Below are positions 1 through 20,203 of a DNA stretch of 20,203 nucleotides, piece after piece. The translations under genes were made by a program, and so were the position numbers. This DNA is from Gemmatimonadales bacterium (lineage in GTDB: Bacteria; Gemmatimonadota; Gemmatimonadetes; Gemmatimonadales; GWC2-71-9): positions 1 to 20,203 of the forward strand of contig JBFJHJ010000044.1 in NCBI GenBank assembly GCA_041613315.1, in the 5' to 3' direction. Every line of letters begins with the position of its first letter. The stretch's first letter is position 1. The notes beneath the pieces are model-generated. The model made no database searches and was not told the origin of the DNA. It saw nothing but the letters and a program-made list of their open reading frames with translations.

Positions 1-1
1 C

Positions 2-1357
2 AGCGTGCTCGGCTTGGAAGTGCGCCCCGTCTATCGCGACCCAGCCAATGGGACACCCTACCCTATCGTGCTCCGCGAGATCCGCCGCGGACTGAGCCGG
101 GCCCTCAAGCGCACGTTCTACGAGTTCACCCGGACCCGAACGACGCACCGACCGAGGCACTACCACGTGCTTGGGCGTCACGCCATGGTCAAGGCGGTGT
201 GGGAGGTTGACACCCAGTTAGCCGATGTCTCGGACAGCTTCGACTTCCTCCTTCAGCTCACTCCCGTGAACACCGGTGCCGCCTGGGAAGAGTTTCGCAA
301 GAACCGGTTCCAGCGGGCTCCCGTCTTTCACTACCGCCCACTCCCTGTGGATCCCTCGATCCTGAAGCGCAGGTTGTACGCTGCTCCCGTGGAACGCGTG
401 GAAGACCCCGCGCTCACCCACTTGTTCCGCGAGAAGCAGGACGAGCTCGACCGGCAGATCACCCTGTTGCTGGATATGAACACATCGAGGTTCGTGCACG
501 GCAGCCTTCAGCTGTTCGGCACTGTGAGCGACGAGCTGCTGGGTCTGGGGGAAGATCTGCTGGAATCGCTCCCCCCGAGGACGCGCGAGGATTCGCGCAG
601 CGGCTACCTCGATGCCGCCACCTTCGCGCGGCGCGCGGAGGAGGAGATCGCCTCGTACCGACGCCAGTGGCCTCAGTTGAACGCGACCGTCCACGTGCGG
701 GGCGACGTGAACAGCGGGTTGATGGTCTCCCGCGGCTCGTTGCTGATCGGCACCGAGACCCGGATCCCCGCGAGCCGTGCTGACGCGCTGCTGCAGCACG
801 AAGTCGGCACGCACATCGTAACGTACTTCAATGGACGGGCTCAGCCGTTCCGCCAACTCTACACGGGCCTTGCCGGCTACGAGGCCCTTCAAGAAGGGCT
901 CGCCGTGCTCGCGGAGTATCTCGTCGGCGGCCTGAGTCGTCCACGTTTGCGCCTCCTCGCTGCTCGGGTTCTGGCCGCGCGGCACCTCGTCGACGGCGCA
1001 TCCTTCGTAGAGACGTTCAGCGAGTTGCACCGGATTCACGAATTCGACCGGCGAACGGCGTTTACGGTCGCGATGCGTATCTATCGTGGAGGGGGCCTAA
1101 CGAAGGACGCCATCTATCTCCGCGGGCTCCGCGAGGTGCTGGCCTACGTGGCGCGGGGCGGGAAGCTCGAACCGCTCTTCGTTGGGAAGATCGCAACCGA
1201 ACATATTCCGATCGTCAGCGAACTGCATTGGCGGGGGGTGCTGCGGGAAGCGCCGCTGACGCCGCGCTATTTCGAGCGCCCAGATGCGCGCCGCCGACTT
1301 GAGCAACTTCGAAACGGCATTACAGTACTCCAGCTCGCGAAGGGGAGACGACGATGA
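2..1357 (+). CDS. QEGLA-motif / DUF1704 (MATCAP-like, tyrosine/phenylalanine carboxypeptidase-like) zinc metallopeptidase; 5'-truncated by window edge
   Basis: Frame is open from the window start. It contains HEVGTH (797-814, HExxxH), QEGLA (890-904) and the C-terminal 'RGGGLTKDAIYLRG' motif typical of flavohemoglobin-expression-modulating QEGLA-motif proteins. The stop overlaps the next ATG (ATGA). Confidence 0.88.
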   Translation, partial: SVLGLEVRPVYRDPANGTPYPIVLREIRRGLSRALKRTFYEFTRTRTTHRPRHYHVLGRHAMVKAVWEVDTQLADVSDSFDFLLQLTPVNTGAAWEEFRKNRFQRAPVFHYRPLPVDPSILKRRLYAAPVERVEDPALTHLFREKQDELDRQITLLLDMNTSRFVHGSLQLFGTVSDELLGLGEDLLESLPPRTREDSRSGYLDAATFARRAEEEIASYRRQWPQLNATVHVRGDVNSGLMVSRGSLLIGTETRIPASRADALLQHEVGTHIVTYFNGRAQPFRQLYTGLAGYEALQEGLAVLAEYLVGGLSRPRLRLLAARVLAARHLVDGASFVETFSELHRIHEFDRRTAFTVAMRIYRGGGLTKDAIYLRGLREVLAYVARGGKLEPLFVGKIATEHIPIVSELHWRGVLREAPLTPRYFERPDARRRLEQLRNGITVLQLAKGRRR

Positions 1358-2400
1358 AAATCGGTATGGTGGTGAACGACATCAGGACCGAGGAAGCCGG
1401 CTACACGACCAGCCGACTTGCGGTGGCCGCGCTCGCGCTCGGACATCAAGTGTGGGTCATGGGCGTCGGCGACCTCGCATGCGACCCCGACGACAAGATC
1501 CGCGCACGCGCCTACGCTGCACCGAAGAAGAAGTATACGACGACCGACTCCTACCTCAAGGACCTGCAAGGCAAGCGGGCCGTCTCCGAGCGCATTACGG
1601 TCGACGATCTAGACGTGCTGCTGCTGCGGAACGACCCTTCGACGGATGCGGTTTCCCGGCCGTGGGCCGCCGGCGCTGGCATCGTGTTCGGACGGGTGGC
1701 GATGCGTCACGGCGTCGTGGTGCTGAACGATCCGAACGGCCTCGGGAAGGCCATGAACAAGATGTACTTCCAAACCTTCCCCGAAGAGGTGCGGCCGAAG
1801 ACACTCATCACGCGGGATCGAGAGGAGATCAAGACCTTCGCGAAGGAGCAGGACGGTACCATCGTTCTGAAACCGCTTCAGGGCTCTGGCGGTCAAGGCG
1901 TTTTCCTCGTGCGCCCCGAAGATGTGCCGAACCTCAACCAAATGATCGACGCCGTGAGCCGTGACGGTTACGTCATCGCGCAGGAGTATCTGCCGGCCGC
2001 GGCCCAGGGAGACATGCGCCTGTTCTTGATGAATGGCCAGCCACTTCGCTTCAAGGGCAAGTACGCCGCCTTCCGTCGCGTCCGCACGGGCGGCGACATG
2101 CGGTCCAACATTCATGCCGGCGGCAAGCTGCGAGAGGCCGAGGTCGACCATGCCGCCCTTCGCATCGCCGAGATCGTGCGGCCGAAACTCGTCCAGGACG
2201 GCATGTTCCTGGTCGGATTGGACATCGTTGGCGACAAACTCATGGAGATCAACGTGTTCAGTCCGGGCGGCCTGGGCAGCGCACAAAAATTCACGGGCGT
2301 CAACTTCAGTCGCACCGTGATCGAGGCGCTGGAGCGGAAAGTCCAATACATGGCCTTTTACCGACGTAACTTCGACAACGTCGAAATGGCGACCCTGTAG
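1354..2400 (+). CDS. Glutathione synthetase-like (GshB-type) ATP-grasp ligase
   Basis: GshB-like N-domain (MKIGMVVN, LDVLLLRNDPS, VLNDP) and ATP-grasp motifs VLKPLQGSGGQGVF, QEYLP, GDMR, RSNIHAGG, GLDIVG, EINVFSPGG. GGGAG lies upstream of the ATG. Whether it makes glutathione is uncertain, so no gene symbol is given. Confidence 0.88.
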   Translation: MKIGMVVNDIRTEEAGYTTSRLAVAALALGHQVWVMGVGDLACDPDDKIRARAYAAPKKKYTTTDSYLKDLQGKRAVSERITVDDLDVLLLRNDPSTDAVSRPWAAGAGIVFGRVAMRHGVVVLNDPNGLGKAMNKMYFQTFPEEVRPKTLITRDREEIKTFAKEQDGTIVLKPLQGSGGQGVFLVRPEDVPNLNQMIDAVSRDGYVIAQEYLPAAAQGDMRLFLMNGQPLRFKGKYAAFRRVRTGGDMRSNIHAGGKLREAEVDHAALRIAEIVRPKLVQDGMFLVGLDIVGDKLMEINVFSPGGLGSAQKFTGVNFSRTVIEALERKVQYMAFYRRNFDNVEMATL

Positions 2401-9035: not shown

Positions 9036-11432
9036 TCATTCGGCCCTCAGGGCAACCAGCGGACTGACGGTGCTCGCACGCCGCGCGGGCAGGTAACTGG
9101 CGACGAACGCCGCCGCCGCCAAGAGCAGTGCCACGGCACCGAAGATCAGCGGATCGAACGGCTTCACCCCAAACAGGAACAGGGATAGCCCGCGGCTCGC
9201 GATCGCGGCGAGCCCCAGACCGATCGCACCGCCCACCGCGACGATTCGCGCCCCCTCCCGCACCACCATCGCGATGACGTCGCGGCGGTCGGCACCCAAG
9301 GCCATCCGGACGCCGATCTCGTGGGTCCGCTGAGTCACCGAGTACGCCATCACGCCGTAGACGCCGACGACGGCGAGCACGATCGCGATCACGGCGAGCA
9401 CCATCATGACCTTCGCGAGCACCGTATTCGCCTGGATGTTCGCCGCGATCCGATCCTCGAAGGTGAGGACGTCGAACACTGGTTGGTCCGGATCCAGCGC
9501 CAGCACGACACTGCGCACGGCGCCGGTCAGCGACGTGGGGTCGCCGGTCGTCCGCAGCACGATGCCCAAGCGGCTGCTCGGCGTCTGCGCGAAGGCGAAG
9601 TACGCCATGGGGAGCGGCGCGGCGCTCTCGAGATCCACTTCCCGCGCATCCCGCACGACCCCTACGATCTCCCGCGGCCCGCCGCCGAATACGAGCCGCC
9701 TGCCAAGCGGATCGCCCTCCGGCCAGTGCCGGCGCACGAACGCCTCGTTGACGACCACCGCACGGACATCCGTGCTGCGATCGGAGGCGTGGAGGCCCCG
9801 TCCGCGAAGTACCGGGATGCCCAGCGTCTCGAAGTATTCTGGGGTGACGGAACGAAAGCTCACGATGGGCGACTGACCCGCCGGCACTTCCTCGCCCTCC
9901 AACTGATAACTCGTGCGGCTGTCGCCGATGAGCGGCAGGAGCGACGTGATCCCGACCGACTGGACCCCGGGCAGGGCGGCGAGCGCCTCGATCAACCGGT
10001 CCGCAAACCGGACGCGGTCGTCGTTCTCGGGATACTTGGCGGCCGGCAGGTCGGCGCGCACGGTGAGCGCGCTCCGGGGCTCGAATCCCAGGTCCGTCGT
10101 CCGAAGCTTGAGAAAGCCTTTCACGAGGAGGCTTGAGGACACGAGGAGGACCATCGCGAGCCCCACCTCGGCGATGACGAACGCGCTACGGAGGCGACCA
10201 CCCCGTCGGCTCAGGCTCGCCCCGCGGCCGCCGTCTTGAAGCGATTGGCGGAGGTCCTGGCGCACGACTTGGAGGGCCGGCGCGATGCCCGCCACGAGGC
10301 CTGCCGCCAGCGTGACCGCCACCGCGTACGCCAGCACGCGACCATCGATCCCGATCTCGTCCACGCGCGGGAACCATGCCGGCATGAGCCCCACGAGCGC
10401 ATCCACCGCGGGGAAGGACACCGCGATCCCAACGACGCCGCCCATGAGTCCCAGCAGCAGGCTCTCGGTGATCAACTGGCGCACGATTCGGCCGGCACCC
10501 GCGCCCAGCGCTCGCCGCACCGCGACCTCCCGTTCCCGACCGGCGGCCTGGGCGAGCAGGAGATTGGCGACGTTGGCGGCCGCGATGAGCAGGAGCAGGG
10601 TCACCGCGACGGTCGCGATGAGCGAGGCCTGACGGAACTCCTCGCCGAAGAGCGCATCCCAGAGCGGCGCCGCGCGGGCGCCCATGCCGACGTTCGTCGC
10701 GGGATACGTCTCCGCGAGCGCTTGGCCGATCGTCGCCACCTCGTCGTTCGCCTGCGCAAGCGTCGCGCCAGGCACGACGCGCCCGACGGTGCTCAGGAAG
10801 TGGCTGCCGCGCGACTCGGTCCCATCGTGGCTGAGCGGGAGGTAGAGCTCCGTCGTCCGATCGGGAAAGTTGAGCCCTGCCGGAGCGACGCCCACGACCA
10901 CATAGGCTTCGCCATCGAGCCGCAGGGTACGGCCCAGAACGTCCCGCTCGCCACCGAAACGGTTGACCCATAGCCGATGGCTCAGCACCACGACCCGTGC
11001 GTTTCCCGGCGTCTCGTTCTCGGAGAGGAAGCCGCGCCCCAATACCGGAGGCGTGGCCAGGACGCGGAAGAAGTTGTGCGACACTTGGAGGGCGAGGAGC
11101 CGGACGGGCAGATCTTCGTCCGACAGGTTCAGGCTCTGCCCGTCGTAGGCGGCCAGATCGAGCGTTCGGCTCCGCTCCCGATAGTCCAGAAAGTCGGGCA
11201 CCGAGAGATCCAGTTCGGTCCAGCCTCGCTCCGCATTCGTGTTCCAGACGACGGCAAGCCGGTCCGCCGAGGGGTAGGGGAGCGGGCGCAGCAGGAATAC
11301 GTCCACCGGGCTCAAGATGGCCGTCGTGGCGCCGATCCCGATCCCCAGACAGATGACGGCGAGCGCGGTGAAGGTCGGGCGTCTGCCGAGGGTACGCAGC
11401 GCGTAGCGGACGTCCTGGAGCAGCGTGTTCAT
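9036..11432 (-). CDS. ADOP-type duplicated ABC transporter permease (two MacB_PCD/FtsX repeats)
   Basis: Starts 'LLQDVRYALRTL..RP.FT'. Contains 'LLLIAAANVANLLLA...REREVAVRRALGA', a second half with 'GVYGVMAYSVTQRTHEIGVRMALGA', and ends 'YLPARRAS.VSP.VALRAE'. Confidence 0.93.
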   Translation of the reverse strand: MNTLLQDVRYALRTLGRRPTFTALAVICLGIGIGATTAILSPVDVFLLRPLPYPSADRLAVVWNTNAERGWTELDLSVPDFLDYRERSRTLDLAAYDGQSLNLSDEDLPVRLLALQVSHNFFRVLATPPVLGRGFLSENETPGNARVVVLSHRLWVNRFGGERDVLGRTLRLDGEAYVVVGVAPAGLNFPDRTTELYLPLSHDGTESRGSHFLSTVGRVVPGATLAQANDEVATIGQALAETYPATNVGMGARAAPLWDALFGEEFRQASLIATVAVTLLLLIAAANVANLLLAQAAGREREVAVRRALGAGAGRIVRQLITESLLLGLMGGVVGIAVSFPAVDALVGLMPAWFPRVDEIGIDGRVLAYAVAVTLAAGLVAGIAPALQVVRQDLRQSLQDGGRGASLSRRGGRLRSAFVIAEVGLAMVLLVSSSLLVKGFLKLRTTDLGFEPRSALTVRADLPAAKYPENDDRVRFADRLIEALAALPGVQSVGITSLLPLIGDSRTSYQLEGEEVPAGQSPIVSFRSVTPEYFETLGIPVLRGRGLHASDRSTDVRAVVVNEAFVRRHWPEGDPLGRRLVFGGGPREIVGVVRDAREVDLESAAPLPMAYFAFAQTPSSRLGIVLRTTGDPTSLTGAVRSVVLALDPDQPVFDVLTFEDRIAANIQANTVLAKVMMVLAVIAIVLAVVGVYGVMAYSVTQRTHEIGVRMALGADRRDVIAMVVREGARIVAVGGAIGLGLAAIASRGLSLFLFGVKPFDPLIFGAVALLLAAAAFVASYLPARRASTVSPLVALRAE

Positions 11433-12390: not shown

Positions 12391-13782
12391 ATGCTGTCGC
12401 TCATCCACGCCCGACTGATCACGGCGGCGCTGCTCGCCGTCGCGCTCGCCGGTCCCGCCGCCGCTCAGGGCTTTCCGGCGGATTCGACCGTCCGCGCCAT
12501 CCTCGCCGAGCGGGTCGCCACCCGACGTACGCCGGGCATCGTCGTCGGCCTCCTCGACGGGACGGGTCGGCGCGTTCTCGCCGCGGGCCGCGCGGATTCG
12601 GCCGCCCGGGTTCCACTCGACGGCCGCACCGTGTTCGAGATCGGGTCGGTGACCAAGGTATTCACGGCGACCGTGCTGGCGGACATGGTGGCGCGCGGCG
12701 TCGTGCGTTTGGACCAGCCCGTGGCCGAACTGCTGCCGGCGGATGCGCGCGTCCCGAGTCGTGGCGGCCGCGCGATCACGCTCCGAGAGCTCGTCACACA
12801 CACCTCGGCGTTGCCGAGGATGCCGAACAACTTTTCGCCGGCCGACCCCGCGAACCCTTACGCGGATTACTCCGTGCGGCAGCTTTACGCGTTCCTGTCG
12901 AGCTACGAGCTGCCACGGGACGTGGGCGAGGCGTACGAGTATTCCAATCTCGGCATGGGACTCTTGGGTCACGCGCTCGCGCGGCGTGCCGGCACGACCT
13001 ACGAAGCGCTCCTGACCGCACGCGTACTGTCCCCCCTCGCCATGCACGACACTCGCATCACGCTCACCCCAGACCTTCGGTCCCGCCTCGCTACCGGGCA
13101 CGACGCGATGGGCAACCCGACGGCCAACTGGGACATTCCGACGCTCGCCGGAGCGGGCGCGCTGCGGTCCACAGCCGACGACATGCTCACGTGGATCGCC
13201 GCGAACCTCGCGCCCCCCGAGGGGCCGCCCGGGCGGGCGATCCGCGACACCCACGCGCCGACCATTGCCACCGGTAACGAGGGCATGGACATCGCGCTCG
13301 GCTGGCACGTGGCCCGACGGCCGAACGCCACCATTATCTGGCACAATGGGGGAACCGGCGGCTATCACTCGTTCGTAGGATTCGACGCGGCTCGGGGCAT
13401 GGGCGTGGTGGTCCTCGCGAACTCCTCGATGAGCATCGATGACATCGCGATCCACCTCCTGGACAGCACCTTCGCGCTCCAGACCCCGGAACCGATCCGC
13501 CGCCGCACCGAAATCGCGGTCGCGCCCCGGGTGTTGGAGCGCTACGTCGGCGAGTACGAGCTCGCGCCGGGGTTCACGATCACCGTGACACGGGACGGCA
13601 ACCAGCTGTTCATCCAGGCCACGAACCAACCCAAGTTTCCGGCCTTTGCCGAGTCCGAAGCCGATTTCTTTCTCAAAGTGGTCGACGCGCAGATCAGCTT
13701 CGTCCGCGATGACGAAGGCACCGTGACGGGGCTCGTGCTGCACCAGGGCGGTGCCACCGTGCCTGGCCGTCGCATCCGATGA
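12391..13782 (+). CDS. Exported serine hydrolase, beta-lactamase class C/AmpC-like fold, with C-terminal DUF3471-like domain
   Basis: Signal peptide (AAA-Q cleavage). Motifs SxxK (FEIGSVTK), YxN (YEYSN) and WHNGGT. C-terminal 'LERYVGEYEL...' domain. Confidence 0.92.
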   Translation: MLSLIHARLITAALLAVALAGPAAAQGFPADSTVRAILAERVATRRTPGIVVGLLDGTGRRVLAAGRADSAARVPLDGRTVFEIGSVTKVFTATVLADMVARGVVRLDQPVAELLPADARVPSRGGRAITLRELVTHTSALPRMPNNFSPADPANPYADYSVRQLYAFLSSYELPRDVGEAYEYSNLGMGLLGHALARRAGTTYEALLTARVLSPLAMHDTRITLTPDLRSRLATGHDAMGNPTANWDIPTLAGAGALRSTADDMLTWIAANLAPPEGPPGRAIRDTHAPTIATGNEGMDIALGWHVARRPNATIIWHNGGTGGYHSFVGFDAARGMGVVVLANSSMSIDDIAIHLLDSTFALQTPEPIRRRTEIAVAPRVLERYVGEYELAPGFTITVTRDGNQLFIQATNQPKFPAFAESEADFFLKVVDAQISFVRDDEGTVTGLVLHQGGATVPGRRIR

Positions 13783-15038: not shown

Positions 15039-18000
15039 TCAGAACGCCCACCGGGCGCCGACCTGCGCCTGCCGCGGGGCCCCCAGGCCCGACTGCACCG
15101 TGCCGTCGAAGTTGAACAGCAGCGAGCCGAAGGCCGGATCGAGGAAGTTGTCCGAGTTCGTCACGTTGAAGACCTCGAAGATCGCCTCGAACTGCTGCCC
15201 GCCGGCGAACGGGAACACCTTCGACAACCTGATGTCCCACGAAAAGAATTCGTTGTCCTTGCGCAGCGTGTTCCGTGTGAGGACCGATCCGTCAGCGCAC
15301 AACCGGTCGGTCGGTGCCGCGGCGCGCTCACCTGCAGGCGGCGCGAACGGATTCGCGCCGAAGGGGTTCCCCGCGGGCCGCGGGCCGCAACTCTCCGAGA
15401 TCGGCTGCGCCGAGTAGTAGCTGACCCGATTGTTCACGAGGACGTCGTACGGAAGCCGTAAGAGGAACCAGCCGTTGACGCGGTGCCGCTGGTCGCGGTC
15501 GCTCCAGTTGTACTCGGGCGCCAGGTTGTCCGCGCGTGCGTAGCGGAGGGTGAACGGGTCACGCTCGTTATCGTCGTCCGACTTGTCGAACGACAGCGTG
15601 TAGTTGACCTGGAACTGCACCAACGGATCGTCCATCCGCGCGAGGGAGACCGTGACGCCGTTGTAGCGCGACTTCCCGCTGCTCTGAACCGTCCACAAGG
15701 TGTTGATGCCGTTGGTGGTCGTCCCGTCGTTCTCGGGATCCAGCCCCGTGCACCACGGTCCGCTGAAGCCGATCGGACAACCCCCGGGACTGTTGCCGAA
15801 CAGGAAATCATTGCTATTGAAGAACCGGGTCAGGCCGTCCGTCCGGGCGTGCGTGTAGCTGACCGCGGCGGCGAGGCCGGACACGATCTCCTGCTCGTAG
15901 CCGACGGTCCCGCTGATCGTTCGCGGGTTCTCGAAGTTGCGGTCGAACACGTACACGTCCGGGTTGAACGGGAACCCGGCCGGATCGGGCAACAGCTGAT
16001 TGATCGCCGGTGGGCGGCCCAGGAACGCGCTCAGCCCGCTGTTCCGGAAGATCGTCTGTCCCAGGGAGCCGTTGGTGCTGCGTGTGCTCGCCAGGTTGAG
16101 TCCTGGAATACGGGCGTAGAAGACGCCGCCGCTGCCGCGGAGCACCGAGCGGCCATCACCGCGGATGTCCCACGCGAAGCCGAGCCGCGGCTGGAAGTTG
16201 TCCCAATCGGATGGGATCGTCCCATCGGAGGGGAACGCAAACGTGCCGGCCGACGTGGTCACACTGGTGCCGATGAAATCCGAGAAGAACACCTGCGAGG
16301 GCGGCGTCAGCACGTCCGGCTGAATCGAGGCCTCCCACCGCAGGCCGTAGTTCAAGCTCAGGTTGGGGTGGACCTTCCAGCTGTCCTGGACAAAGAACGC
16401 CAGCTCGTGCTGCGGGATACTCTGTGTCCCAGCCTGCGCCACCGTCGTGCCGCCAACCCCCGCCTGCTGGAGATAGAGGAGCACAGGCCCCGTCGGCGGG
16501 GCCCCGCCCGGGCACGCCCCGGTCGTTCGTCCCAGACCCGGCGCGTCACCGGAGCATTCGAAGTAGCTGTTCCCGTCTGCAGCATAGCGCAAGAAGCCCG
16601 GTACCGAGCTGAAAATGAACCGGCCGTTCGCGAACCCGATGAAGGTCTGGACCGATTCGACCCGATTCCACTCGGCACCGATCTTAAACAGGTGGTTCCC
16701 GGCGGCGATGGATAGGTTGTCCAGCACCTGAATGCGGGAGTCGTAATACTCGATCGGCAGGAAGAACGGCATGCCGATCCGGTACCCGCTGGCGAAGTCC
16801 ATCGCGATGTCCGGGAACGGTCGGTTGCCGTCGCGGGATGTCACGCCGGGCGGCGGCTGGACGCCCGGTATCGTCGGGCCAAGATACGGCCGCGGCCGAT
16901 CCTCCCGGGACCATTGGAACCGGAACTCGTTCGTGACGCGGGCCGAGACAAACGAGGAGAGGCTCCCGTTCACCGCGTGGGAGAAGTCCTTCTCAAGGCC
17001 GTTGGCGCTGGCCCCCCAGGTATCCACGTCGAACGTCCCGTTCTCTTGCTGCGACCAGGTGTAGTTGTACTTGAGCGACGCGTTGTGCCGGTCGCTCAGC
17101 CTGAAGTCGAACTTCGCCAGCAGCGCCCGGGCGTTGTCGGTGCGGTCGATCGCTCCGAAGTCCCCGTTCAGGGCGCCGCCGAACGCCGTGTCGGTCCAGG
17201 CCTTGAGAGCCGGGTTGATGAGGCTCAGCCGGTTGGCCTGGCGCGTATCGTCGAGCGCCTGCTGGTCGTACGCTACGAAGAAGAACGCCTTGTCCCTGAC
17301 GAGCGGCCCGCCCAGCGTAAACCCGAACTGGTGCTGCTGGAAGTCGGGGTTGCGCGTCAGCGTGTTCCCCACGACGGCGCAGATGCCGCCCACATCGGTA
17401 CAGACGTGCCGCGCCTCCGCGGAGAGCGGGTCGTACTTGCCGAAGTAGTGCACCGAGCCGTGGAGCTGGTTCGTCCCGGACTTGGTGATCACGTTCACGA
17501 AGCCGCCGCTGGAGCGCCCAAACTCGGCGTTGGCGCCGTCGGACACCACCACGATCTCCTGCACGGCGTCCAGGTTGAACGTGAACGGCGGCCGCTGGCC
17601 GCCGCGCTGCTCGCCGAAGAACGGATTGTTGAAGTCGGCCCCGTCCACCGAAATGTTGTTGTGAATCCCCTTCTGTCCGGCAATCGTGAGCTCGTCACCG
17701 TCGGGCCCCTGTACGAGCGCCACGTTGGGCGTGAGGAGCGTGAGATCGAGGAAGTTGCGGCCGTTGTTGGGCAGCCCCTTGACCGCGTTCTCGGGCAGGC
17801 GCGTCGCGGCCTCCGATCGTTCGGTATCCACCGTGGGCGCCCGCGCCTCCACCGTCATCGCCTCCAGCGCGATCACCCCCACGGTGAGCTGCAGATCCAC
17901 CGTCTGGCCGACCCGCACCTCGATCCCGCGGCGTACGTTCTCCCGCACGCCCGGTGCGCGCGACGTCACCTCGTACGTCCCAAGCGGGAGGAGGGGCGCG

Positions 18001-18224
18001 GCGAACGTGCCGTTATCGGCCGTCGTGAGCGTCCGCGTGAAGTTCGTGTTCATCTCCCGCATGACGACCGTCGCGCCAGCGACGGGGTTGCCCTGGGCGT
18101 CCACCACCGTACCGCGGATGATACCGGTCGTGGCCTGCGACTGGGCACGCGCCAACGACGGGACCAGCGTGACCAGCACCGTGAGGAACGAGAGCCAGCG
18201 GCTCGACACGAGGGTGCGCAGCAT
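15039..18224 (-). CDS. TonB-dependent outer-membrane receptor, Oar-like, with N-terminal carboxypeptidase-regulatory-like domain
   Basis: Signal peptide (ARA-Q). N-domain 'IRGTVVDAQGNPVAGATV', plug 'LP.NGRNF.DL..LTP' and 'AEFGRSSGGFVNVITKSGTN.LHGS'. Barrel motifs QDSWK and PRLGFAWD, and a C-terminal aromatic beta-signal (ARWAF). Likely start is ATG 18224; the track start is 18269. Confidence 0.92.
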   Translation of the reverse strand: MLRTLVSSRWLSFLTVLVTLVPSLARAQSQATTGIIRGTVVDAQGNPVAGATVVMREMNTNFTRTLTTADNGTFAAPLLPLGTYEVTSRAPGVRENVRRGIEVRVGQTVDLQLTVGVIALEAMTVEARAPTVDTERSEAATRLPENAVKGLPNNGRNFLDLTLLTPNVALVQGPDGDELTIAGQKGIHNNISVDGADFNNPFFGEQRGGQRPPFTFNLDAVQEIVVVSDGANAEFGRSSGGFVNVITKSGTNQLHGSVHYFGKYDPLSAEARHVCTDVGGICAVVGNTLTRNPDFQQHQFGFTLGGPLVRDKAFFFVAYDQQALDDTRQANRLSLINPALKAWTDTAFGGALNGDFGAIDRTDNARALLAKFDFRLSDRHNASLKYNYTWSQQENGTFDVDTWGASANGLEKDFSHAVNGSLSSFVSARVTNEFRFQWSREDRPRPYLGPTIPGVQPPPGVTSRDGNRPFPDIAMDFASGYRIGMPFFLPIEYYDSRIQVLDNLSIAAGNHLFKIGAEWNRVESVQTFIGFANGRFIFSSVPGFLRYAADGNSYFECSGDAPGLGRTTGACPGGAPPTGPVLLYLQQAGVGGTTVAQAGTQSIPQHELAFFVQDSWKVHPNLSLNYGLRWEASIQPDVLTPPSQVFFSDFIGTSVTTSAGTFAFPSDGTIPSDWDNFQPRLGFAWDIRGDGRSVLRGSGGVFYARIPGLNLASTRSTNGSLGQTIFRNSGLSAFLGRPPAINQLLPDPAGFPFNPDVYVFDRNFENPRTISGTVGYEQEIVSGLAAAVSYTHARTDGLTRFFNSNDFLFGNSPGGCPIGFSGPWCTGLDPENDGTTTNGINTLWTVQSSGKSRYNGVTVSLARMDDPLVQFQVNYTLSFDKSDDDNERDPFTLRYARADNLAPEYNWSDRDQRHRVNGWFLLRLPYDVLVNNRVSYYSAQPISESCGPRPAGNPFGANPFAPPAGERAAAPTDRLCADGSVLTRNTLRKDNEFFSWDIRLSKVFPFAGGQQFEAIFEVFNVTNSDNFLDPAFGSLLFNFDGTVQSGLGAPRQAQVGARWAF

Positions 18225-18317
18225 AGGAGGAAGCCTCGCAAAGGGGAGTTTCAACGCCAAGGCTATCATCGCCCCGCAGGCCCCGCAAGATCCGGTGCCA
18301 AGGGCGTGCTGGAACGC

Positions 18318-18794: not shown

Positions 18795-18982
18795 CGTCCA
18801 CCAGCCTGTGCGTGAGGGTGAAATCTGCTACGGCCGGTCCCCGCGCCGCCAGCGACGACCCCGCGTCTTCCTGTCCGGCCGTCGACGGCACACTTTTAGT
18901 TCGGCGTGCGGCGACGCTCTCGAGTGCCGCGCCGCCCACGACCGTTCCTGCAACGTACCCCGATCGGCACGGAGGTTCCGCG

Positions 18983-20203
18983 ATGCCTGCCCGTCTCCTT
19001 CCGCTCGCGTCCGTGGCGCTGCTGCTCGCTCCCGCGGTCGCAGCCCCCATGGCGGCCCAGACAACGCCCACCCAGCGGGCCGCCGCCCGCGACGTCATCC
19101 GGCAGATCGACGCCCTGCAGGCGGAGCTCAAGCCGACAGCCTACGGCCGGGCCATGGCCCGCAAGCGCGATCGTGACCGCGATCGGCTGTTCGAGCGCGT
19201 GGACGCCCTGTGGGCCGGCGAGCTGCGGGACCTGAGCGACCACATCGGCCGGCACCCCGAAGTGGGATGGAAAGAGTTCCGAACCGTCGATACCCTCACG
19301 GCGGTGCTCCGGGGCTACGGCTTCCGCGTCACCACCGGCCAGGCGGGGCTGGAGACGGCCTTCGTCGGTGCCTGGGACGCTCCGGCGGGGGTGAACGGGC
19401 CAACCCTGGGCATCATCGTCGAATACGATGCCCTCCGCAGCACCACCGAGCCGTTCCACGGCTGTCAGCACAATGCCCAGAGCCCGGTTGGGTTCGCCAC
19501 CGCGGTCGCCCTCACAGAGTTCATGGCGGCCAAAGGTCTCCAGGGGCGCGTGCGGGTCTACGGCACGCCCGCCGAGGAGGTCGGGCCACCGGCCAAGACG
19601 ATCATGTGGAAGGCCGGCGTGTTCCAGGGCGCGGACGTCCTGATCCGCAGCCACGGGTCGAGCGAGACGAGCCGGAACAAAGCCGGCTTTGGCGTCTGCT
19701 GCCTGAACATCAACGAAGTGCGCTACATCTTCACCGGCAAGGCGGCGCACCAGCGGGCATCCTGGTTCGGGCGCAACGCGCTCACGGCGGCGGTCCAGTT
19801 CTATACCGCGGTGGACCACCTGCGGCCCACCTTCCGGCCGGAGGCGTCCATCCAGGGCGTGATTCCGGAGGGCGGGATCGCGCCCAACGTCGTGCCCGAA
19901 CGGGCGGTCGTGGATTACTACATCCGCTATCCGGATGAGGTGTACCTCGCCCACATGGATTCGATGATGGCGAACGCCGCCCGAGGCGCGGCACTCGCGA
20001 CCGGCACCGAAGTGACGATCGAGCGCTACGGCGAGTACCGCGACGGCATCACGCTGGGGACCCTCGAAGAGTTGGCGTTCGCCTACGCGGAAGCGTTCAG
20101 CGCGCCGAAGATCGATCCCGAGCCGCAACGGCCGGCGGGCTACGAGGAGACGGGGTTTCTCACGCGTGACATCCCCGGCGTCGGGGTCAGTGTCTTCACC
20201 TCG
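18983..20203 (+). CDS. Exported M20 family amidohydrolase (M20D / AbgB-Acy1L2-like); 3'-truncated by window edge
   Basis: Absent from the ORF track because it has no stop in the window; translated by hand. GGAGG at 18971-18975, ATG at 18983, signal-like MPARLLPLASVALLLAPAVAAPMAAQ. Motifs HPEVGWKEF, EYDAL, HGCQHN, GTPAEE, FTGKAAH, GRNAL and GG.APNVVPERA. Confidence 0.9.
   Translation, partial: MPARLLPLASVALLLAPAVAAPMAAQTTPTQRAAARDVIRQIDALQAELKPTAYGRAMARKRDRDRDRLFERVDALWAGELRDLSDHIGRHPEVGWKEFRTVDTLTAVLRGYGFRVTTGQAGLETAFVGAWDAPAGVNGPTLGIIVEYDALRSTTEPFHGCQHNAQSPVGFATAVALTEFMAAKGLQGRVRVYGTPAEEVGPPAKTIMWKAGVFQGADVLIRSHGSSETSRNKAGFGVCCLNINEVRYIFTGKAAHQRASWFGRNALTAAVQFYTAVDHLRPTFRPEASIQGVIPEGGIAPNVVPERAVVDYYIRYPDEVYLAHMDSMMANAARGAALATGTEVTIERYGEYRDGITLGTLEELAFAYAEAFSAPKIDPEPQRPAGYEETGFLTRDIPGVGVSVFTS

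Follow-up and report, generated by a model that had tools for sequence, protein, structure and literature searches.

Contig C44 of a Gemmatimonadales bacterium genome (82.9% complete) was analyzed over its whole length of 20,203 nt, referred to here as the window. Its first two genes encode a QEGLA/DUF1704 metallocarboxypeptidase of the MATCAP family and an ATP-grasp ligase of family PRK12458, a paralog of the glutathione synthetase GshB. We found that they belong to a genuine, widely conserved and uncharacterized three-enzyme unit, the first member of which is an N-formylglutamate amidohydrolase (FGase)-like protein. Our tentative reading of this unit, possible rather than probable, is that it cycles a small peptide of glutamate type, in connection with salt or ion balance.

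The original prediction had described a HEVGTH/QEGLA metallopeptidase gene that overlaps, at an ATGA, an ATP-grasp ligase gene with intact catalytic motifs, and coordinates and profile scores confirmed this (Table 1). It had also raised the possibility of a larger operon reaching beyond the left end of the window and had named an FGase-like gene as one to look for there. Such a gene does lie on contig C47 (L001 in Table 1), which overlaps the start of the window, and C47 also supplied the peptidase N terminus (the first 187 codons), giving a full length of 638 residues, compared with about 640 in relatives. Terminal overlaps of this kind were seen for five further contig pairs of the same assembly, and in three further runs from the study (X2, X3 and X4), one contig each (1802, 763 and 1774 bases) covers both sides of the C44/C47 join. 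The gene order is FGase-like, peptidase, ligase, and each pair overlaps. The TGA of the FGase-like gene forms a GTGA with the GTG start of the peptidase gene (L001:13771), and the second pair shares the ATGA, at which peptidase and ligase are probably translationally coupled. hslR lies 112 bases upstream of the FGase-like gene and is absent from the neighborhood clusters of relatives. An upstream scan for sigma-70 promoters and terminators found none. The GC content of the ligase gene is 0.62, compared with 0.69 in the flanks, and GC at third codon positions is similar (0.81 versus 0.82 to 0.85), so there is no clear sign of recent transfer.

Distribution and architecture of the unit

A scan of GTDB genomes returned at least 589 relatives of the ligase. 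Counts of loci given here refer to the best 80 of them (68 to 85% identity), with flanks within 7 kb. These loci come from Planctomycetota, Poribacteria, Bacteroidota, Chloroflexota, Acidobacteriota, Calditrichota, Actinomycetota, Gemmatimonadota, Proteobacteria and other phyla. The peptidase gene was found beside the ligase gene in 74 of the 80 loci, so the linkage on which the original prediction depended is conserved, and the complete triad was present in 68. The ligase was the most conserved member of the unit, with 77 to 86% identity across phylum labels. Three of the six loci lacking the peptidase end less than 350 bases upstream, and the other three are Poribacteria with full flanks; in sister Poribacteria, the triad is present and has MscS and pst/phoU genes as neighbors. 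In an unbiased phylum draw, both of the clade members met carried the full triad. The ligase was found in 2 of 61 genomes related to the source genome, which indicates a patchy distribution and probable mobility of the unit.

Three architectures were recognized. Type A is the triad. Type B consists of a ligase (signature EVNVLSPGG, also PRK12458) followed by an FGase-peptidase fusion, and type C is a lone short peptidase. QEGLA matches were obtained in 24 of 151 gammaproteobacterial genomes: six have the triad (one of them the center of the draw), two have an active FGase-peptidase fusion, one with and one without an adjoining ligase, and 16 have the short form. No ligase or FGase gene was found within 1.5 kb of these 16, and the same held over wider flanks for the seven that were fetched. 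The short lone QEGLA peptidases (about 430 residues; L137-L149, L156-L158, L160, L161) have varied neighbors, and their architecture is closer to that of MATCAP. In Bacteroidia, QEGLA matches were found in 5 of 121 genomes, all five beside a ligase. Fusions joined FGase and ligase in P0241 and FGase and peptidase in L199, L203 and L205. A 985-residue peptidase-ligase reading frame in L027 was not counted as a fusion; it comes from a long-contig assembly, and at its junction a run of A precedes TAATG, so that an indel is probable.

Two further arrangements were observed. At least eight loci, mostly planctomycete (L029, L050, L054, L056, L060, L061, L088, L089), contain ligase paralogs in tandem, two or three per locus, and some of these loci also have two peptidases. 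Pocket positions 16-17, 93-94 and 134-135 vary between the paralogs. In Actinomycetota (L078, L081, L083, L085, L094, L096, L101), the order is ligase, FGase-like gene and then a peptidase gene on the opposite strand.

Properties of the three enzymes

The peptidase open reading frame (ORF) scored above the cutoffs of TIGR02421 (347.8 bits; cutoff, 338.65) and of the Pfam MATCAP family PF08014 (303.9 bits; cutoff, 27). Its HExxxH motif aligned with H280-E281-H285 of human MATCAP, and the Glu of QEGLA aligned with the third zinc ligand in the MATCAP EEG motif. HExxxH and QEG were both present in all 112 aligned peptidase relatives, and the invariant R548, R551, K557, D558 and Y561 of the bacterial family are identical to the aligned residues of MATCAP. 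An AlphaFold model of P0121, a 73%-identical full-length relative (predicted local distance difference test score, 89), gave a Foldseek match to human MATCAP (7z5g; E value, 4.7e-9; template modeling score, 0.71 over the target) and a weaker match to FGase (2q7s; E value, 3e-3). Profile scores, residue alignment and structural match together upheld the proposed homology to MATCAP. The bacterial enzyme thus has the fold, the HExxxH motif and the (Q/E)EG motif in common with MATCAP/TMCP1-2 (KIAA0895L, KIAA0895; PDB 7Z5G). It differs from MATCAP in its low identity (19%), in an extra degenerate FGase domain and in having no tubulin.

This extra domain occupies the N terminus. When 79 peptidase N-domains were compared with 74 FGase-like proteins by hhalign, they matched with a probability of 96.8% (E value, 2.8e-10). 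The alignment begins at FGase residue 77, leaving H21 and E44 without a counterpart, and H135 is aligned with W, which points to a degenerate copy of the upstream FGase-like enzyme. The domain would be a remnant of the active FGase-peptidase fusion of other lineages and possibly serves as a docking or substrate-binding module.

The FGase-like protein itself scored above the cutoff of the Pfam FGase family PF05013 (81.6 bits) and had no match among solved sequences at an E value of 1. H21, E44, H135 and E221 are conserved among these proteins, and the first three, which we take to be zinc ligands, are present in 99%. Pfam family and all four residues are shared with HutG (TIGR02017; FGase 2Q7S). 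A role as HutG N-formylglutamate deformylase was nonetheless rejected: the TIGR02017 score is 17.5 (cutoff, 278.75), and hutF was present in only 3 of 56 carriers, so that the unit occurs independently of hutF. In the source genome, hutF adjoins an ArgE-type deacylase gene and not hutG (Table 1); this deacylase may take the deformylase role.

The ligase ORF matched the Pfam domains GSH-S_N and GSH-S_ATP and passed NF009110/PRK12458 (481.1 bits; cutoff, 408). It failed both GshB equivalog models, NF003573 (217.8; cutoff, 272) and TIGR01380 (199.4; cutoff, 299.05), as well as the RimK family models TIGR00768 (75.4 of 143.4) and NF007764 (35.4 of 331). Type B ligases score just above NF003573 (277 to 278 bits). 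The closest solved match of the window's ligase was E. coli GshB (PDB 1GSA; E value, 7e-37). The ATP-grasp catalytic set is present (K136, K173, D220, R222, R250, N252, D290, E298, N300), and these residues and R92 occur in 99 to 100% of 103 triad ligases. Compared with 16 GshB proteins by sequence alignment, these 103 kept all residues for ATP, Mg2+ and the acyl phosphate, and acyl-phosphate chemistry is presumed from family knowledge.

The substrate pocket has changed. In E. coli GshB numbering (presumed for D19), triad ligases have D19 replaced by Y/F, E124 by N/S, T285 by F, T288 by G and E292 by S, and N123 also is altered. R21 and R244 are gained in the triad ligases. T285 was found in 16 of 16 GshB proteins, and F occupies this position in 99% of the triad ligases. 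In GshB, the altered positions are ones that we take to hold glutathione. With acids lost and arginines gained, the pocket would be suited to an acceptor that has an extra carboxylate and whose amine is blocked, the kind of compound on which an FGase-type partner acts. The GshB signature EIN(V/I)TSPT and the NEK motif are replaced in the window's ligase by EINVFSPGG and MNK. A clade-specific C-terminal tail has Y336, R338, F340 and N342 in 91 to 97% of the 103 ligases, and 92 of 98 end in Leu. Domains and length class are shared with GshB (1GSA; NF003573, TIGR01380); the triad ligase differs from it in an RPWA insertion, this conserved tail, the lack of gshA dependence and the coupling to two hydrolases.

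The phylogeny likewise placed the ligase outside GshB, in a clade of its own, as had been anticipated. Two maximum-likelihood trees, one of 119 rows and one of 63, were built quickly, with Shimodaira-Hasegawa-like approximate likelihood ratio test (SH-aLRT) support only, a RimK/MptN-like outgroup on long branches, and neither cyanobacterial nor E. coli GshB. Canonical GshB, type A ligases and type B ligases formed three separate groups (SH-aLRT, 99/97/100 and 98/99/99). In the second tree, the GshB group held 33 proteobacterial-type sequences (SH-aLRT, 98), and triad ligases were supported at 99. A long-branch GshB paralog with the motif EVNVITPGG (L222) has neither a QEGLA nor an FGase neighbor.

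Table 1. Coordinates of the unit, its sequence features and other genes mentioned in the text
Feature	Location	Strand	Size	Description
Contig overlap	window 1..141	+	141 bases	Exact, unique identity with the last 141 bases of C47 (L001)
Peptidase N-terminal domain, end	window 2..140	+	last ~46 residues	Degenerate FGase-like domain without predicted zinc ligands
Peptidase ORF	window 2-1357	+	451 residues, 5' end open	C-terminal 451 of 638 residues, QEGLA/DUF1704 MATCAP-family metallocarboxypeptidase
HEVGTH (HExxxH)	window 797..814	+		Residue 266 of ORF; zinc-binding/catalytic motif
QEGLA	window 890..904	+		Residue 297 of ORF
ATGA stop/start overlap	window 1354..1357	+		Peptidase TGA overlaps ligase ATG
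Ligase ORF	window 1354-2400	+	348 residues	PRK12458 ATP-grasp ligase, GshB paralog; EINVFSPGG (GshB, EINVTSPT)
Ligase C-terminal tail	window 2350..2397	+		Clade specific, absent from GshB; predicted short helix
FGase-like gene	L001:12992-13774 (C47)		260 residues	N-formylglutamate amidohydrolase family, upstream of peptidase
Second ATP-grasp gene	L001:9069-9935 (C47)	-		3 kb upstream of FGase-like gene, beside sdh operon; best match, DcsG D-cycloserine synthetase model (216 of 360 bits)
GCS2-family gene (L002)	C20:26802-27638	-		YbdK-family carboxylate-amine ligase
hutF locus	L221:8188-10678 (C35)	-		Source genome
GshB paralog	L222:5631-6572			
MacB-type permease	window 9036-11432	-		Ordinary unrelated gene (Pfam)
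Beta-lactamase-family protein	window 12391-13782	+		With DUF3471; ordinary unrelated gene (Pfam)
Outer-membrane barrel	window 15039-18269	-		With carboxypeptidase-regulatory domain; ordinary unrelated gene (Pfam)
M20 peptidase	window 18812-20203	+		Truncated by contig end; ordinary unrelated gene (Pfam)

Glutathione, protein tags and small peptides

The distribution of gshA was surveyed in 51 carrier genomes, comprising those of the 50 loci with the longest flanks plus G049. The GshA family PF04262 was found in 1 of the 51 and PF04107 in 25. Neither was found in 26; four of these are closed chromosomes, and another has a completeness rating of 100%. Canonical gshB also was present in all six gammaproteobacterial triad genomes. 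The unit is therefore independent of gshA and gshB, and the suspicion that the label "glutathione synthetase" is misleading was borne out. No gamma-glutamylcysteine ligase was found among the 15 window ORFs scanned in Pfam, as had been claimed. The source genome as a whole has no PF04262 GshA, no canonical gshB and no clear rimK, but it does have a single GCS2-family gene, for a YbdK-family ligase (PRK13515, 456 bits; cutoff, 371).

Given the failed GshB cutoffs, the separate clade, the 26 carriers without GshA families and the co-occurring canonical gshB, the unit is very unlikely to make glutathione, and it is very probably not a glutathione synthetase system. The opposite view is that the ligase is a second glutathione synthetase and that the hydrolases turn glutathione over. 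The 1GSA match, the GCS2-family gene in 25 of 51 carriers and in the source genome, and the narrow pass of type B ligases on NF003573 speak for it; NCBI names PRK12458 "glutathione synthetase," and excerpts of PMC3462692 treat it as GshB. We regard this as highly improbable, also because GshB-invariant pocket residues are changed and, in the Photobacterium data described below, regulation is opposite to that of canonical gshB.

The original prediction put forward a two-enzyme writer and eraser of a protein tag. The ligase would add C-terminal residues and the MATCAP homolog would remove them. S6 is treated in this way by RimK/RimB, and tubulin by TTL/TTLL together with MATCAP. As candidate targets we would add the neighboring channels or transporters. 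The intact MATCAP fold and motifs are consistent with this, as is the large loop of the ligase, RSNIH, which resembles that of two RimK-like proteins (RSNxH) rather than the RGNLA of GshB. RimK R189, which binds the acceptor C terminus, is kept as R222, and RimB/RimK offer a precedent (excerpts of PMC11957051); however, R222 is also invariant in GshB. By score, GshB models (218 bits) are much closer to the ligase than is the RimK family (75 bits), and the FGase-like partner is not explained by a simple tag. RimK has six glutamate-binding belt arginines, R8, R64, R96, R98, R102 and R189 (excerpts of PMC10375531). Only two are kept in the ligase, R64 as R92 and R189 as R222; R98 corresponds to M134 and, by offset, R96 to K132, R102 to Y138 and R8 to N8. 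No recurring substrate or carrier ORF was found in the 80 loci, where no short ORF family among 1669 candidates occurred in more than three (kin) loci; an unlinked protein could still be the substrate. Taken together, the three enzymes, the lack of a recurring substrate ORF and the two of six belt arginines favor a small-molecule cycle, and we consider a protein tag unlikely. The other proposal of the original prediction, that the pair makes and turns over a non-glutathione small peptide, fits better.

In the cycle that we tentatively favor, the ligase would act on an acceptor that is small, acidic and probably N-acylated, and would attach an amino acid to it, with glutamate the likeliest candidate. 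The MATCAP-type carboxypeptidase would clip the added residue off again, the FGase-like enzyme would remove the remaining N-acyl amide, and the cell could thereby reversibly store and release glutamate-like solutes as salt or Mg2+ balance shifts. MATCAP opposes an ATP-grasp ligase, TTL/TTLL, as we propose for the bacterial pair, although here the partner ligase is GshB-like rather than TTL-like and a third enzyme is present. MATCAP/TMCP enzymes trim glutamates, and the Tetrahymena member is a deglutamylase (excerpts of PMC10499314), which argues for an acidic substrate. Carboxypeptidase activity on acidic C termini has been demonstrated for eukaryotic members and is predicted, by analogy, for the bacterial one.

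Another possibility is that a small-peptide cycle serves a different purpose, with a metal (Mg2+) chelator, a signal or a redox-neutral glutathione analog as product and only a secondary osmotic link. The tandem planctomycete paralogs with differing pockets suggest that a short peptide of defined composition is assembled step by step, and animal RimK-like enzymes make N-acetylaspartylglutamate and beta-citrylglutamate. The Mg2+ transport families MgtE, CorA and CNNM recur beside the unit (10, 9 and 4 of 80 loci), but these counts are without a control, and the sole expression data point to low salt. We judge this alternative somewhat unlikely. A catabolic or repair unit, with hydrolases that recover peptides that are N-blocked or damaged and a ligase that passes an intermediate on, appears very unlikely. 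It would account for the many stand-alone QEGLA peptidases (16 of 24) and for the removal of N-acyl groups by FGase-fold enzymes, but the ATP-consuming ligase is the most conserved member and no peptide transporter recurs, except for one permease family in 9 of 80 loci.

Osmotic and ion context

MscS-family genes were found in the flanks of 16 of the 80 loci, after two further weak matches had been dropped. Within 7 kb, 14 of 50 loci had MscS, whereas the background density (255 matches in 242 Mb) predicts 0.6; these 14 represent 12 labeled lineages, including three Poribacteria. The excess does not reflect kinship alone, but a Poisson value overstates it.

Expression data come from Photobacterium damselae (table excerpts of PMC10308900). 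At low salt, a 1029-bp "glutathione synthase" gene overlapping a 1983-bp QEGLA gene was upregulated, by 38.4-fold and 27.5-fold, respectively, and a 948-bp gshB was 1.6-fold downregulated. The Rlo peptidases of Pseudomonas, whose genes accompany an ATP-grasp gene, cleave poly-glutamate, and the cell requires them during hypo-osmotic stress (excerpts of PMC11957051). RimK/RimB and RloABC have in common with our unit a co-encoded ATP-grasp ligase and peptidase, glutamate chemistry and the RSNxH loop (excerpts of PMC11957051 and PMC10375531); however, the Pseudomonas RimB/Rlo peptidase is a retropepsin, whereas our unit has a gluzincin and an FGase-fold enzyme, and its ligase fails the RimK models and lacks most belt arginines. 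The MscS link, the induction in Photobacterium and the Rlo precedent together suggest the hypothesis that a fall in salt leads cells to sequester glutamate reversibly.

Several observations weigh against this osmotic glutamate cycle. The source locus has no MscS neighbor, and a seed or profile search found none at 14 more distant loci of the module; kinship accounts for part of the MscS excess. The other recurring neighbors of the 80 loci, which besides the Mg2+ families include an amino-acid-permease family (nine loci), are likewise uncontrolled counts. In Photobacterium, rimK was upregulated 52-fold at low salt and ribosomal genes also rose (PMC10308900, table excerpts), and the gene pair fits the type B architecture by gene size and order only. 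The members of the unit also occur apart: no TIGR02421 match was obtained in the genomes of the three Poribacteria with the ligase alone (L049, L059, L098), the control genomes being without this family, and the peptidase can apparently act without the ligase, judging from the 16 of 24 stand-alone forms and from one fusion with no ligase in a 9.5-kb stretch. As for chemistry, the two of six belt arginines weaken the case for a poly-alpha-glutamate product, and the YbdK-family ligase of the source genome could supply a gamma-glutamyl acceptor.

A bolder variant would make the unit a bacterial forerunner of the tubulin glutamylation cycle, with reversible C-terminal glutamylation of mechanosensitive channels or Mg2+ transporters in salt down-shock and the FGase-like enzyme removing the branch-point residue. 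We hold this to be distinctly unlikely.

Predicted peptide-tagging systems of ATP-grasp ligases with linked peptidases were reportedly described by Iyer et al. in 2009, and that work may already list the trio of FGase, peptidase and ligase as a prediction. Among the full-text matches listed, with subscription papers and preprint supplements outside the search, none was a functional study of PRK12458 or of QEGLA proteins from bacteria. The gene pair appears there only as table rows, for Vibrio vulnificus (VV2_1203/1204; excerpts of PMC3091676) and for Photobacterium (excerpts of PMC10308900).

These analyses offer a testable function for two widespread families without an assigned role, PRK12458 and QEGLA/DUF1704, and a bacterial context for the human tubulin enzyme MATCAP. 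They also imply that the name "glutathione synthetase" is probably wrong for many of the genes that bear it in Planctomycetes, Bacteroidota, Gemmatimonadota, Poribacteria and other groups. As all three enzymes are soluble and low salt provides a clear stress condition, the question of the substrate is directly testable.

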